64,000 nt of DNA, taken from Eledone cirrhosa. Lineage: Eukaryota. The translations under genes and the position numbers were made by a program. The stretch spans positions 17,980,001-18,044,000 of the forward strand of contig OZ024753.1 of the NCBI GenBank assembly GCA_964016885.1, written 5' to 3'. The stretch's first letter is position 1. Every line of letters begins with the position of its first letter. Positions 5,445 to 48,271 of this stretch are shown here, piece by piece. The notes beneath the pieces are model-generated. The model worked only from the letters and a program-made list of their open reading frames with translations. It did no database searches and was not told the origin of the DNA.

Positions 5445-5621
5445 GATTCCTGTTGATAAGCACAGCAGATTTGGAAATTTCACTCTTTTATTTCTATTCC
5501 ATTTCGATTCTCTTTATTTTTCAATTCACATTCCACCGTTGCGAAACTTATTTGAGTTTCGAGGTTCAAATTCGTCTACAGAACAGGTTTGAATTTTGAA
5601 ATTTAAATATGTCCAGGAATC
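5445..5621 (+). ncRNA. Large type I hammerhead ribozyme (U3-A8 core)
   Basis: Stem I GAUUCCUG/CAGGAAUC; core UUGAUAA; stem II GCA/UGC with ~80-nt insert; GAAA; ~26-bp stem III rich in G-U pairs; GUC site ending 5613. Confidence 0.75.
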
Positions 5622-6000
5622 ATGGCAGTTGCCAATATAAGCTTGTCTTTATTGACTTGTATCGAGACAGACAAATTGTATTCACTTTTATTAGTTTATT
5701 TCATTAATAGCTAACTTTGTCTGTTGCAATGTAAACACATTTCGTGTTTATCATATACTTTAAATGTATTAACTGCTCGGAAGAGCCCCTTCCTGGAGCT
5801 TAATTATTGTAAACGACTGAGAGTTTATTCTCAAAATATAATATAATGTATAGCTCCTTTATTGTAAGAGCTGATCCTTAATCCTGCATAAGCGGCTGTT
5901 ATTTCTAGCACCGTGAATGTGGGATAGCTAGTTTTGGCCTGCCTACCCACGTGTAGTCAGACCTGCAAAATATTTGATGTGAGATAGATTAATCTTACTG

Positions 6001-6177
6001 GATTCCTGTTGATAAGCACAGCAGATTTGGACATTTCACTCTTTTATTTCTATTCCATTTCGATTCTCTTTATTTTTCAATTCACATTCCACCGTTGCGA
6101 TACTTATTTGAGTTTCGAGGTTCAAATTCGTCTACAGAACAGGTTTGAATTTTGAAATTTAAATATGTCCAGGAATC
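6001..6177 (+). ncRNA. Second copy of the large HHR, core mutated GAAA to GAUA
   Basis: Same fold 556 nt downstream; TGCGATAC instead of TGCGAAAC. Confidence 0.6.
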
Positions 6178-6888
6178 ATGGCAGTTGCCAATATAAGCTT
6201 GTCTTTATTGACTTGTATCGAGACAGACAAATTGTATTCACTTTTATTAGTTTATTTCATTAATAGCTAACTTTGTCTGTTGCAATGTAAACACATTTCG
6301 TGTTTATCATATACTTTAAATGTATATATATATATACATATATATAGTAATAATAATAAAATTGAAGACTAACATCCAAAATATATATATTTAATTGTTG
6401 TTCGAGTAGGCGCCTGTGTTGATATAACATTGATTTATGTATTCTGTTGTCACTAAAGGGAATCTCCTTAAACAGAGATATGTGTGAAATATTTGACTGT
6501 AACATTCGCTTCCTTTCTCTTAATCTTCAATGTTATGAAGGGTAATGTAGGGAATTATGAATATATAATTATACCAGAGATATATCTGTATTAATCCCAC
6601 AGTTGTCGCAAACAACCTGGATCCCAAAGAGAGAGAGAGAGGCTGGGAGGTATATATATATATATATATATATATATATATATATATATATATATATATA
6701 TATATATATAGAGAGAGAGAGAGAGAGAGAGAGAGAGAGTGACGGAGAGAGAGAGATGAGGCCGAGAGAGGCTGGGAGAGAGAGAGAGATAGATAGAGAG
6801 AGAGAGAGAAAGAGAGAAAGATATATGAGGGAGAGAGAGATTGTAAACTTGTATTCAGAATTTCATGAAATATAAATGATATTTAAAG

Positions 6889-7140
6889 GTGCCATACCGC
6901 CATAGGTAGCTGTTGTTCCCATTAATTATGGACAGCTTTTAGAAGCTCAGAAATCTCATAGCTTGAAATGTTACTGAAAATAGAGAAATAATATTTTAAT
7001 ATTTGATGAGATTTCATATGTCCACCTGGATTTGATATATGTAATGCATTCTTTGTGTAAATAATACTCATATACTTGGATAATACAAAATGTATTCACT
7101 TTGTTATATAACTTTGAAACAATGGAATACTCTCACTTTG
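6889..7140 (+). pseudogene. Decayed Ig-domain-like exon
   Basis: After AG acceptor reads AIPP*VAVVPINYGQLLEAQKSHSLKCY*, then YSYTW and NTLTL in nearby frames; resembles Ig A/B/C/E strands. Confidence 0.35.
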
Positions 7141-45964: not shown

Positions 45965-46310
45965 ATATACGATATTAACAAATGGAAACTATATTTATAA
46001 AACCATATCTATTTTATTATACATATTTCAAGGATACCATGTTAAATTATGGTATGCTTTCATCAGACAAAATACAATATATACCAGTTTTATAGATAAA
46101 TATTGACATACCCTTTCAAAATGCAACCATTACTTTTGGAAGAAACGGTCGCATTTTGAAAGGGTATGTCAATATTTATTTATAAAACTGGTATATATTG
46201 TATTTTGTCTGATGAAAGCATACCATAATTTAACATGGTATCCTTGAAATATGTATAATAAAATAGATATGGTTTTATAAATATAGTTTCCATTTGTTAA
46301 TATCGTATAT
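45965..46310. repeat. Fold-back palindrome of an HHR-bearing pLTR (same family as 27711-28020)
   Basis: Near-perfect arms about centre ~46137; HHR 46010-46074 (-) and 46201-46265 (+). Confidence 0.92.
46201..46265 (+). ncRNA. Minimal HHR
   Basis: UAUUUUGU-CUGAUGA-AAG C AUACCAU..AUGGUAU C CUU-GAAA-UAUGUA-UA-AUAAAAUA. Confidence 0.8.
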
Positions 46311-46486
46311 TTACTCCAAATACTTGTCGAGTGCTTTATATCAGTTATAAAAATATTTGCTTGTTGTATCCCAACAATTTAAATAGAACTTTTGCATATA
46401 TATATATATGTTTTAATATATATATATATATATATATATATTAAAACATAAATATTAATAATATAGATGTCCATTTGATCAATTAC

Positions 46487-46540
46487 ATTTCATTATACAT
46501 ATTTCGGATGTACAACAGTACGTCCTCATCAGACAAAATA
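46487..46540 (-). ncRNA. Minimal HHR with canonical core
   Basis: UAUUUUGU-CUGAUGA-GGA C GUAC UGUU GUAC A UCC-GAAA-UAUGUA-UA-AUGAAAU. Confidence 0.82.
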
Positions 46541-48232
46541 TAATGATACATGACATACCCTGGGATGTTAAATGGTTAAGATCAAATGGAAAATTATTTC
46601 CTCGTAGAGTGCTTCCAATCTACTGTAAAACTCATTCTTTGACATAATCATTGAATATCGTTTAACACTTTAATATATATATATATATAGTTTTTCTTCT
46701 TGACTTGTTTTGAATTAAGAATGTATTACTTATCCCATATCTTTCGTTAAACATTTTTCGTATTCATCTTATAGTCACTTATATGTCTGAATTATTGTTG
46801 GCTACTTGCTGACATTAATTTCTCTATTTTCATATAAATATATATATATATATATAGAGAGAGAGAGACGTAGTTCCACAACAGTTACTTCACCATTCCG
46901 AGAACAATTGTTTCACCTAATTCAGATCCTGAGCTCGGTCTAAATGAAGTTGTACGGAAAAGGAAAAACAACCGTACAAATACGCCTGTGCAGAAAATAG
47001 TCACTTCTCCTGGGGGAGGTAATCCCACAATAGATCGATGTGAGGGAGATTATTGGACTATGGAGTATGAAGTCCGGAATACATCATTCATGTTATTCAG
47101 AATATTATAGATTGTTCATGTTAGTCAATCTGGGGATTTGTAATTATGTAATAGGTGTTTCCAGACGTGTGGACAACCTGAACAAATTTCATTCCTTGAA
47201 TTTAGGCAATCGATATTGTGTAATCGTGGGCTGTGCATTGAAGAAAGGATCAATATCCTAAGAACATTAAGTAATAACGATTACCTAAATTCAAGGAATA
47301 TACATAGATGTTTGTTTTTGTTAATGTTTGCGCTGGGTGGGGTCTGTGTGTGCAGATGTCTGTGTGTGCAGATGTCTGTGTGTAGAGAGGGTGCATGTGT
47401 AAGTGAGTATGCGTGGGAGTGTTTGTGTGCGTACTAATAAATATAGATACAATTCAATACCAGGTAAAACTATCAGAGGAAATGTAATTTTTACCGAATA
47501 ATAATAGATGTGTATTTAACAGCAAACTCCACTCGCAGTAAATAACTTATTTACTTTTCAATAAGCTCAGTGTTTCGTTTTTCCTATTGCATTGCTGCTA
47601 GAAACATTGGATGTATCTAGAAACATATTTATGTGTCCAGTCATTCCGACTACTGAAACAACGACTGATCAGATTTTAACTTGGAAAACATCATTAAAAT
47701 ATAAATGTGTAATCAAAATAGTTTTGACAATTGTATACATCTCTTCGGCGAAATCTTCCTGGATACATAATCATGCAGAAATCACTCTAGGTAATACATA
47801 CATACACACTCCAACACACATACACACTAGAATACACATACACACGCGAACAGACACACATACACACTCATCCATATGTGCATATATATATATACATGTA
47901 TATATATATATATATATATATATATATATATATATATATATATATATATACATGTATATATATATATATATATATATATATATATATATATATATATATA
48001 TATATATATATATATATATACATGTGTGTGTGTATACGCATATATGTATATATATATATATAGAGAGAGATATATAAATATACAAGGGTGTGTATGATTG
48101 TGTGTAGAAGATTATATTAATAAAAGGAATTGCAACTTTGTCTGATTTACTCGGTTTATTTACAATCCTTTTAAATTTATAATTCTATTAGAATGAAATA
48201 GTATGGTAGAATATTAAATGTTAAGTGTTAAT

Positions 48233-48271
48233 TGAACAAGTACTTTCATGCTTTTGCAATCTTCAGGTTCA
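48233..48271 (-). ncRNA. Minimal HHR (39 nt)
   Basis: UGAAC-CUGAAGA-U UGC AAAA GCA U-GAAA-GUAC-UU-GUUCA. Confidence 0.8.

Follow-up and report, generated by a model that had tools for sequence, protein, structure and literature searches.

The question raised by a 64,000-nucleotide stretch of the Eledone cirrhosa genome (contig OZ024753.1, positions 17,980,001 to 18,044,000; hereafter, the window) is why so many sequences resembling hammerhead ribozymes are found together in it and to what kind of element they belong. The original prediction listed at least 15 motifs from about 10 unrelated repeat families. All 18 listed sites proved to be type I hammerheads or mutated copies thereof, in agreement with the predicted number: 10 have an intact core (CUGANGA or UUGANAA, GAAA and UH, in this order), and 8 differ from it at one core position. 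The core variants at 9337, 29389 and 32784 are fixed in the respective families, those at 6001, 16820, 39101 and 46898 are copy-specific, and site 29006 (U4C) was assigned to neither class. The 18 sites represent 12 sequence families, or 10 when three related ones are merged; the predicted family count was thus close, but "unrelated" was too strong. The motifs and the elements around them are as follows ("unlisted" denotes sites absent from the original list).

4654-6325, +: non-coding 556-bp hammerhead repeat, retrozyme-like, about 2.5 tandem units and an inverted arm at 4654-4861
5445-5621, +: large type I hammerhead, UUGAUAA core (U3-A8), predicted monomer fold; stem I 8 bp, loop II about 75 nt, G-U-rich stem III about 25 bp
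6001-6177, +: next tandem copy of the 5445 hammerhead, A14U
9336-9386, +: hammerhead with U4A core (CAGAAGA), Hydra-clade family, inverted tail at the 5' side
10245-10340, no strand: fold-back remnant, long-stem hammerhead family, truncated within stem II, unlisted
11058-12100, +: Hydra-type Penelope-like ORF, broken 3' part, CxCX5C linker, GIY-YIG-like end
13592-13636, +: decayed minimal hammerhead, CAAUUG stem III, unlisted
14246-15838, +: Penelope-like RT with C-terminal endonuclease, broken
16106-16145, +: decayed hammerhead (G5C) in the 3' repeat of the 14246-15838 element, unlisted; two other copies have CUGACGA
16532-16593, +: decayed UAURUA-group hammerhead (A9G), unlisted
16752-16800, -: hammerhead, intact core, 3-bp stem III, long arm of a two-armed insertion
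16822-16870, +: opposed copy of the preceding hammerhead, A14G, short arm
19941-20041, +: intact U3-A8 hammerhead, long stem II, CAAUUG stem III, unlisted
20257-20332, +: intact hammerhead, 8-bp stem III, from a non-coding unit of about 474 bp
21245-21714, +: 318-bp non-coding unit, 1.5 copies, with an intact U3-A8 hammerhead at 21556-21601
27744-27806, -: minimal hammerhead, UAUAUA stem III, long arm
27928-27984, +: minimal hammerhead opposed to the preceding one, short arm
28338-28379, +: 16820-family copy truncated within the core, unlisted
29006-29052, +: minimal hammerhead, U4C, CAAUUG stem III
29230-32945, -: Neptune-like Penelope element with flanking inverted repeats, frameshifted RT/GIY-YIG ORF at 30391-32647
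29390-29426, -: minimal hammerhead-like motif, UUGAAAA and GCAA, 3-bp stem I, sense, in the 3' repeat of that element
32784-32820, +: the same motif (U3-A8 plus A13C) in the inverted 5' repeat
39102-39142, +: decayed hammerhead (G5U), Hydra-clade family with the core CUGAAGA or CUGAGGA, two-armed insertion
39253-39298, +: second copy of the U4A family, fold-back, 5' strand of stem I lost, unlisted
46010-46074, -: intact minimal hammerhead, young Hydra-clade element, short arm
46201-46265, +: opposed copy of the 46010 hammerhead, long arm, 84-nt tail to 46395
46482-46544, -: intact minimal hammerhead, related family
46898-46938, -: decayed hammerhead (G5C), 39102 family
48233-48271, -: intact minimal hammerhead, GUAC stem III, Neptune-like family
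58398-58440, -: minimal hammerhead, A6U, CUAG stem III, beyond the range 5445-48271

As also predicted, the motifs tend to lie in short islands between (TA)n tracts: islands of up to 600 nt contain 13 of the 18 sites, compared with 30% of random positions, with 2 of these 13 islands made shorter by the motif's own TATATATA. Among the sites absent from the original list are the intact long-armed motif at 19941-20041 (+) and several decayed or cut copies.

With a first descriptor, which specified the type I order, a C3-G8 or U3-A8 pair and loops of up to about 45 nt and left long loops outside, eight perfect-core motifs were recovered (20257+, 21556+, 27928+, 46201+, 27744-, 46010-, 46482- and 48233-). 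Allowing up to one core change yielded 11 motifs, namely, the same set plus 9336+, 29006+ and 58398-. The shuffled control bore out the prediction: in 60 block-wise dinucleotide shuffles, the mean number of perfect-core motifs was 0.05 (maximum 1) versus 8 in the window, a 160-fold excess, and the mean with up to one change was 1.07 (maximum 3) versus 11. Manual inspection and homology resolved the 8 listed sites beyond the first descriptor. Since 5445 and 32784 both fit the type I order, a reading of them as scrambled (type SGC) was unneeded and was dropped.

Minimum-energy folding recovered all three stems in 1 of 14 motifs (20257). The minimum-energy fold of 5445 contains stems I and III (z -2.94), and the minimal motifs at 9336, 16751, 32784 and 46898 adopt other minimum-energy folds as monomers. 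Screening of the whole window with Rfam 15 gave no match at the gathering score, so that, as far as Rfam is concerned, the predicted under-annotation was confirmed. At E-values up to 10, no hammerhead family was present among the 150 of 204 matches listed, which included microsatellite-driven microRNA matches, and a search with 46150-46620 (471 nt, two intact motifs) returned four weak unrelated matches and no hammerhead. In the UAURUA group of motifs, collected without requiring stems I and II, pairing in stem I reached 84%, compared with 60% when partners were dealt anew, and 73% versus 63% in stem II, with kinship ignored in both cases; none of 2000 partner shuffles equalled the observed pairing of stem I or stem II. 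Compensatory stem changes between families are present in this group, paired swaps also occur between sister families, and the core is kept across at least 27 sequence clusters while the stems vary.

The original prediction described the window as a dense collection of hammerheads. The enrichment over shuffled sequence stands, but the density is typical of the genome. In 39 spaced 10-kb samples (389,600 bases), we found 36 motifs, that is, 92 per Mb, versus 1 in 10 shuffles together, and 29% of resampled 64-kb stretches contained at least eight perfect-core motifs. A special local cluster was therefore rejected on the basis of the samples and the resampling. Two exact patterns matched 126,159 times genome-wide: 107,612 matches to one pattern, versus 193 when this pattern was read backwards, and 18,547 exact 30-mer matches to the family with the U4A core (CAGAAGA).

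Judging from their sequence context, these motifs are hammerhead-shaped sequences located at the ends of Penelope-like elements and in small non-coding repeats. Both the autonomous elements and the non-coding hammerhead repeats that had been postulated are present, and both were traced. Four families lead to coding Penelope-like elements (Hydra clade; Neptune-like). Copies of the 46201 hammerhead form direct repeats 4,067 nt apart around the ORF in locus L035 and precede the ORF start in L031. The translations of L031, L034 and L035 contain DKT, a CxCX5C linker and a C-terminal endonuclease lacking CCHH, and these predicted ORFs fit the Hydra-clade definition of Craig et al.; the distance between the two hammerheads of L035 is outside the size tendency of that clade (<3 kb). 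In the 9337 family, a Hydra-type endonuclease lies upstream in sense in 6 of 25 loci; the 39101 family is linked to an ORF in loci L233, L247, L252 and L265; and for the 48233 family, 1 of 16 loci shows a Neptune-like ORF upstream. The repeats that contain the 32784 motif belong to the RT and GIY-YIG element present in the window itself. Pfam RVT_1 and GIY-YIG scored above the cut-off for 30391-32164 of this element, the ORF of which is frameshifted in the window copy, and the translation of the 30.4-32.6 kb element (DKG, a CX2-5CxxC linker and a CCHH endonuclease) corresponds to the Neptune or Nematis clade. For the Hydra-type ORF pieces, Pfam gave no RT or GIY-YIG match, and RVT_1 was detected in 1 of 51 homologues; motifs and homologues together suggest their Hydra-type identity. 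A Naiad identity of the WFxPP-type ORFs was ruled out because Naiads have an N-terminal endonuclease, whereas the endonuclease lies after the RT in every parent traced. No parent was traced individually for the 29006, 27928 and 46487 families.

Three of the 12 families, accounting for 4 of the 18 sites, are retrozyme-like non-coding units of 318, 474 and 556 bp. Tandem units with one type I hammerhead each were found in L158 (474 bp) and L172 (318 bp, seven units), and the 556-bp and 318-bp units extend beyond the cut site by more than a full unit. Like the coding families, the 556-bp unit has two end points: 156 nt behind the cut site for the sense arm and 239 nt behind it for the inverted arm. 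An RCTC...GAGY hairpin is located within 6 nt behind both of these ends, as in the Hydra element (chance, 0.4% per end). No such hairpin was detected at the ends of the 318-bp unit, and it is damaged in the single references available for each of the 474-bp and 39101 families. Penelope-type protein matches flank the units, outside them, in 2 of 20 (556 bp), 2 of 20 (474 bp) and 2 of 16 (318 bp) loci. The small non-coding hammerhead repeats likely ride on Penelope-like elements, and mobilization of the three units by Penelope-like enzymes appears likely. Among the sequencing runs listed in a search with the 556-bp unit, there was no RNA run.

Copies stop at two fixed points behind the hammerhead, adjoining (TA)n, often as two opposed arms. 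Hydra-clade copies terminate in TA runs, which corresponds to (TA)n insertion, with target duplications unreadable inside the tract. The pseudo-LTRs that hold the hammerheads are direct in L035 and inverted in L034 and in the window. A short arm was paired with a long one in 17 of 18 two-armed loci of the 46201 family and 13 of 14 two-armed insertions of the 39101 family; in the 48233 family, at least locus L199 is an exception, being long on both sides by eye, and scripted arm calls for that family gave two long arms in five cases. With respect to 5' ends within the hammerhead, 21 of 30 arms of the 39101 family stop 17-51 nt before the cut site, and the U4A family has a weak pile-up (13 of 34 arms); the same test in the 46201 family had 3 usable arms. 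A general RT stop at the hammerhead, strong in the 39101 family and weak in the U4A family, was rejected.

Together, these observations favour, with a probability of roughly 0.85, the reading that the 3'-end hammerheads of Hydra-clade and Neptune-like elements, along with the three non-coding units, accumulate through internal starts and early stops of reverse transcription. The motifs would pile up because the RT likely begins at two points located 27 to 240 nt behind the hammerhead and in most cases terminates early. From the copy layout and from in vitro work on the anole element, we infer that both strands of a (TA)n tract are nicked by the endonuclease, that each nick would prime cDNA synthesis on uncut RNA at one or the other start point, and that the two cDNAs may then join via a short match, often within the hammerhead, which is self-complementary. 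A single event would produce an island of 100-500 nt with one or two hammerheads in it. Because the RT would copy uncut RNA and stop early, most insertions probably keep one or two motifs, and the majority of copies in the genome would then probably be dead passengers. Cutting would be of importance in tandem elements and in retrozyme arrays, from which it would set free unit RNAs or circles. The original prediction invoked cleavage as dimers; this could apply to tandem copies, which could pair in cis, but not to the opposed pairs, which lie on opposite strands and so form no cis dimer.

The small two-armed islands could instead be independent non-coding MITE-like or hairpin-RNA elements moving as whole palindromes, which we consider unlikely. 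Many islands are indeed near-perfect palindromes, and in the 16820 family, the same junction occurs in most displayed loci and no ORF was linked in the 18 loci displayed of 20. However, this locus set is biased because the query itself contained the junction, and the native-junction arm is the long one in about seven loci and the short one in about six (by eye), which fits fresh joining of cDNAs. Moreover, in the other families, junctions differ between copies and longer copies continue into the ORF. Most short islands are cut-short copies of coding elements and not independent parasites; of the predicted non-coding class, only the three families of tandem units are shown.

Quite improbable, in our assessment, is that the hammerhead cuts the RNA first and the resulting 3' fragment, or a circle made from it, is the usual template, with cleavage setting the ends. 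Conservation of the core across the sequence clusters despite changing stems would agree with such a role, as would the passage of non-coding units across the cut site over more than a unit length, expected of a circle or multimer, and one arm of the window's 39101 insertion does halt at the cut site. Nevertheless, none of the 30 arms of the 39101 family ends at the cut site or in the 16 nt before it, and 27 run through it; in the U4A family, 1 of 34 arms ends within 2 nt before the cut site and 32 pass it by at least 9 nt. Furthermore, in the part of the anole study concerned (PMC11167929), hammerhead mutants had no effect on insertion in vitro. For the three non-coding units, a template cut first may apply. 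That a loose descriptor simply picked up chance matches in DNA rich in AT and repeats has virtually no standing, and for the perfect-core set is already refuted: shuffles do yield about 1 motif per 64 kb and 4-8 per 390 kb when one core change is allowed, and Rfam lacks hammerhead matches, but this reading is contradicted by the perfect-core excess, the scarcity of backwards matches, the compensatory stems and the fixed place in element ends.

Within the preferred reading of internal starts and early stops, a bolder extension is doubtful: that this genome carries the densest hammerhead load so far observed in an animal (about 1 per 10 kb), that the fold matters more than the cut, as the spread of the U4A family might indicate, with the RT passing through the cut site and frequently halting and linking its two cDNAs within the fold, and that non-coding RNA circles became part of the system because they carry the two start hairpins of the Hydra element. 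The U4A family, with its variant fixed in the core, numbers more than 18,000 near-identical copies.

The biology is known in kind, and the gain lies in scale, variants and testability rather than in a new system. The role of the hammerhead for Penelope-like elements in vivo and the enzyme that moves animal retrozymes are open questions in the field, and the E. cirrhosa genome brings both, with insertions on the order of 10^5. The U4A family offers a natural experiment on whether spread needs cutting, the 556-bp unit points to a candidate partner enzyme and to two start points testable in a published in vitro assay, and Rfam overlooks all these motifs.

Penelope hammerheads, opposed pairs, the U3-A8 core, tails and retrozymes are already published; the comparisons that follow refer to parts of the cited texts. 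Cervera and De la Pena 2014 (PMC4209133) described type I minimal hammerheads with a short palindromic stem III in Penelope-like flanking repeats, opposite-strand pairs 100-700 bp apart, mostly single motifs from truncated elements and many families per genome. The E. cirrhosa motifs share the type I fold in flanking repeats, the palindromic stem III, the extra base before stem II, U3-A8, the opposed pairs, the prevalence of single motifs from truncated elements and the multiplicity of families. That work counted about 2,000 plus 1,300 motifs in Schistosoma, 4,000 in coelacanth and 9,000 in Xenopus versus 126,159 here, numbers that are roughly comparable given the different descriptors; 126,247 motifs are given for axolotl (PMC7229834 / Li et al. 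2026, 10.64898/2026.07.22.740005). Perreault et al. 2011 (PMC3088659) described U3-A8, the U10.1-U11.1 mismatch and the viroid U4C as tolerated. The U4A and A13C cores are absent from the portion of the PMC4209133 text covered and are not named in that of PMC3088659, the figure or supplements of which may list them. Likewise, the literature searched for core variants and record counts contained neither a fixed U4A core (18,547 copies here) nor this hammerhead density, although supplements may list them, and the literature searched contained no non-coding unit with Hydra-type hairpins behind both ends. A literature search for hammerheads in octopus or cephalopod genomes returned no paper beyond Craig et al. 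2021, and the words "hammerhead" and "ribozyme" do not occur in the portion covered of a 2026 Octopus vulgaris repeat paper (PMC13282606).

The coding families resemble the Hydra clade of Craig et al. 2021 (10.1101/2021.04.23.441226) in the C-terminal GIY-YIG without CCHH, DKT, CxCX5C, (TA)n insertion, hammerheads, inverted 5' copies and the one-ended tail. They differ in the 4.1-kb unit of L035, compared with generally under 3 kb, in tails of about 70-100 nt, compared with 30-40 bp for Penelope-like elements generally, and in tens of thousands of end fragments where few Hydra families were reported. The non-coding units resemble metazoan non-LTR retrozymes (PMC7229834; 10.64898/2026.07.22.740005), for which both mobilization by and origin from Penelope-like elements have been proposed, in being low-GC tandem non-coding units with one type I hammerhead each, a likeness drawn here from genomic DNA. 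The 556-bp unit is longer than the 150-450 bp of Cervera and de la Pena 2020 (PMC7229834) and differs from published retrozymes in that both stem III and loop II are long and in having two fixed ends, tails on one side and hairpins of the Hydra type; "tail" as a word appears nowhere in the Li et al. 2026 preprint (10.64898/2026.07.22.740005). The closest mechanistic parallel that we draw, by sequence layout, is to anole Poseidon, for which Frangieh et al. 2024 (PMC11167929) reported in vitro that two internal start sites behind the hammerhead explain the tail, that both strands are nicked in AT-rich DNA and that uncut RNA is the main template. Poseidon belongs to another clade, its start sites are inside the ORF start, and its hammerhead needs protein to cut.

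With the type I descriptor, we found 8 hammerheads with a perfect core in the window, or 11 once a single core change was allowed, compared to means of 0.05 and 1.07, respectively, in 60 local dinucleotide shuffles; Rfam at gathering score returned no hammerhead match in the window. The original observation of type I folds at 18 sites is correct. Sites beyond the descriptor's reach were assigned by hand and homology, and 10 of the 18 have intact cores, the rest being one-change copies or variants (3 family-fixed variants, 4 private mutations and 1 ambiguous case, 29006). The window contains additional motifs that the original list lacks. 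Sites and families are named by window start positions.

Hammerheads with noteworthy structure or cores
5445-5621, type I hammerhead, 177 nt: 8-bp stem I, U3-A8 core, long loop II, long stem III
6001, hammerhead adjoining 5445: A14U
32784 and 29389, hammerheads: U3-A8 plus A13C
39101 and 46898, hammerheads: copies with core mutations, from a family whose core is otherwise normal

G-U pairs are frequent in the long stem III at 5545-5612, part of a 556-bp unit; they may be relics of A-to-I editing that became fixed. A fold-back element with GAAA-GC-UA lies between (TA)n tracts at 49118-49365, and also at about 16946-17050 and 44330-44360; it is probably a further minimal hammerhead family that lost the first core strand at the fold.

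The U3-A8 core has already been published for Penelope-like elements (PMC4209133). The 32784 family carries A13C as a fixed change; in a sister family of 32784 and 29389, GAAA is normal and both stems differ by paired substitutions. The 9337 family is fixed for U4A: it was present in 100/100 among the first 100 matches listed, and none of 49 distinct copies from the retrieved loci had U4. Neither U4A nor A13C was found in the main-text passages on core variants that were consulted; a U4C variant from a viroid performs poorly in vitro yet suffices in vivo (Perreault et al. 2011, PMC3088659).

Stem conservation was assessed on 56 distinct motifs of the UAURUA group (minimal hammerheads with a UAURUA stem III, as at 27744, 27928, 46010, 46201 and 46482), gathered without requirement on stems I and II. 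In stem I, 84% of cells were paired versus 60% with re-dealt partners, and in stem II, 73% versus 63%; neither value was attained in 2000 shuffles, a statistic that ignores kinship. Judging from these sequences, the hammerhead structure is under selection. The fourth pair of stem II is a C-C or C-U mismatch retained across diverged families. Minimal motifs with a palindromic stem III are predicted to gain 2-8 kcal/mol as dimers, the monomer folding without stem III; opposed genomic pairs cannot use this gain because they lie on opposite strands. In 1.1 Mb of retrieved loci, 155 distinct perfect-core motifs formed 29 clusters, 2 of which look like chance matches.

The proposed combination of autonomous Penelope-like elements and non-coding hammerhead parasites is largely correct: four families have parent ORFs, and three others are non-coding units. 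By sequence, a Hydra-clade element has the 46201 family (100% identity over 106 nt in the best-scored 40 matches) as its terminal repeat: at one locus an ORF is flanked by two of its hammerheads, 4,067 nt apart, and at another the ORF starts directly behind its tail. The protein carries DKT and CxCX5C without CCHH, the marks of the Hydra clade (Craig et al. 2021, bioRxiv 10.1101/2021.04.23.441226). Pfam gave no RT match on this protein, and RVT_1 was found in 1/51 homologues. A Hydra-type endonuclease lies upstream, in sense, in 6/25 loci of the 9337 family and in four of the 39101 family. The 32784 motif sits in the window's own Neptune-like element (Pfam RVT_1 and GIY-YIG above cut-off), and the 48233 family is linked to a related element in 1/16 loci. 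The families linked to an ORF do not include 16820, 29006, 27928 and 46487, the last two being sequence relatives of the 46201 group. In the 9337 family, either about 200 nt or about 950 nt separate the endonuclease from the hammerhead, and two upstream sequences (L105/L117/L118 versus L100-L104) meet a common downstream part at AG, preceded in one version by a pyrimidine run; the 3' region possibly contains an intron.

Three families are non-coding units of 556 bp, about 474 bp and 318 bp that continue through their own predicted cut site, the last in seven tandem copies at one locus. Both ends of the 46201 element are followed by an RCTC...GAGY hairpin. The 556-bp unit has such a hairpin no more than 6 nt past each of its two ends (0.4% by chance for one end), which links at least this unit with Hydra-type copying; retrozyme papers propose Penelope-like mobilisation in general (PMC7229834; bioRxiv 10.64898/2026.07.22.740005). 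The hairpin also follows the short end in the 9337 (with a long loop), 16820 and 27744 families. In the 474-bp and 39101 families it is damaged in the single reference of each and visible by eye in other copies, and it was not found behind the ends of the 318-bp unit or of the two Neptune-like families.

In every family listed below, copies terminate at two 3' positions behind the predicted cut site.

Distances of 3' ends behind the cut site (nt)
46201 family: about +53 and +138
9337 family: about +27 and +120
39101 family: about +36 and +105
16820 family: about +27 and +100
48233 family: about +125 and +165
556-bp unit: about +156 and +239

Two-armed insertions combine a short and a long arm in 17/18 loci of the 46201 family and 13/14 insertions of the 39101 family; one 48233-family locus (L199) is long on both sides. 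A 39101-family pattern located behind the cut has 768 matches; among the first 30, the cut site is crossed by 27 arms. Of these, 21 end 17-51 nt before it, within the 36-nt fold or at its edge, while the interval 52-110 nt holds no arm end. In the U4A (9337) family, 32/34 arms pass, with ends scattered out to 400 nt. The passage of most arms suggests that the template is usually uncut RNA, and the arm-end profiles point to short reverse transcription that would stop inside the hammerhead fold in some families, not all. Two cDNAs primed on opposite strands would then join via short matches, and the high hammerhead density would arise because the hammerhead is among the first parts copied. Very long (TA)n tracts lie beside Penelope-like insertions at 32940-34230 (about 1.3 kb) and 27200-27610 (about 0.4 kb).

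To the 3.0-Gb genome we applied the window's descriptor in 39 evenly spaced 10-kb stretches (389,600 bases), which yielded 36 motifs with a perfect core, versus 1 in 10 shuffles combined; two tandem arrays account for 13 of the 36. This density, 92 per Mb, extrapolates to 277,000 motifs genome-wide (bootstrap 138,000-446,000), or 192,000 (108,000-292,000) with each array counted once; the estimates are low because the descriptor misses long-armed motifs. Exact matches genome-wide numbered 107,612 for the UAURUA-group pattern (193 read backwards) and 18,547 for a 9337-family 30-mer (0 backwards), in agreement with the sample (12 observed versus 14 expected, and 6 versus 2.4). The window's density of 125 per Mb is ordinary for this genome, and the dense collection described originally is no special cluster: 29% of resampled 64-kb stretches reach at least 8 motifs. 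Random-sample loci L064, L066 and L057 hold more hammerhead arrays, with 311-bp units on both strands and 482-bp and 528-bp units.

Other repeats in the window
1-4400, minus strand, 5' part of a non-LTR retrotransposon: ORF1-like region, endonuclease-like region, RT (Pfam RVT_1)
44399-45265, 48353-48970 and 35680-36180, broken LINE fragments
17160-17270, 21760-21930, 24400-24600, 26500-26690, 41330-41700, 53580-53760 and 56580-56770, SINE-like repeat of about 190 nt
37660-38230, minisatellite with 22-23-nt units

We take the retrotransposon to be L1/Tx1-like from its appearance, and the LINE fragments are presumably RTE-like; Pfam gave no match on 44399-45265. Long ORFs related to the retrotransposon occur at L032 and L036, and the SINE-like repeat has more window copies than those tabulated. 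The short unique stretches 42930-43020, 46950-47290 and 62205-62549 are candidate host exons.

The hammerhead/Penelope system, whose hammerheads are putative ribozymes known from sequence, is known in kind. The short/long arm layout corresponds to the one-sided tail of Penelope-like elements (Craig et al. 2021, bioRxiv 10.1101/2021.04.23.441226). Frangieh et al. 2024 (PMC11167929) attribute that tail to two internal start sites; in their system, nicks occur in both DNA strands and the template is mostly uncut RNA. The published counts consulted, made with differing descriptors, run from about 2,000 to 9,000 minimal motifs in a genome (PMC4209133); one coral has >6,000 motifs, one mussel about 5,000 and the axolotl 126,247 (PMC7229834). 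Four features exceed the portions of these accounts that were consulted: the scale of the system, the cores fixed as U4A and A13C, the greater tail length, and a non-coding unit that carries putative start hairpins.
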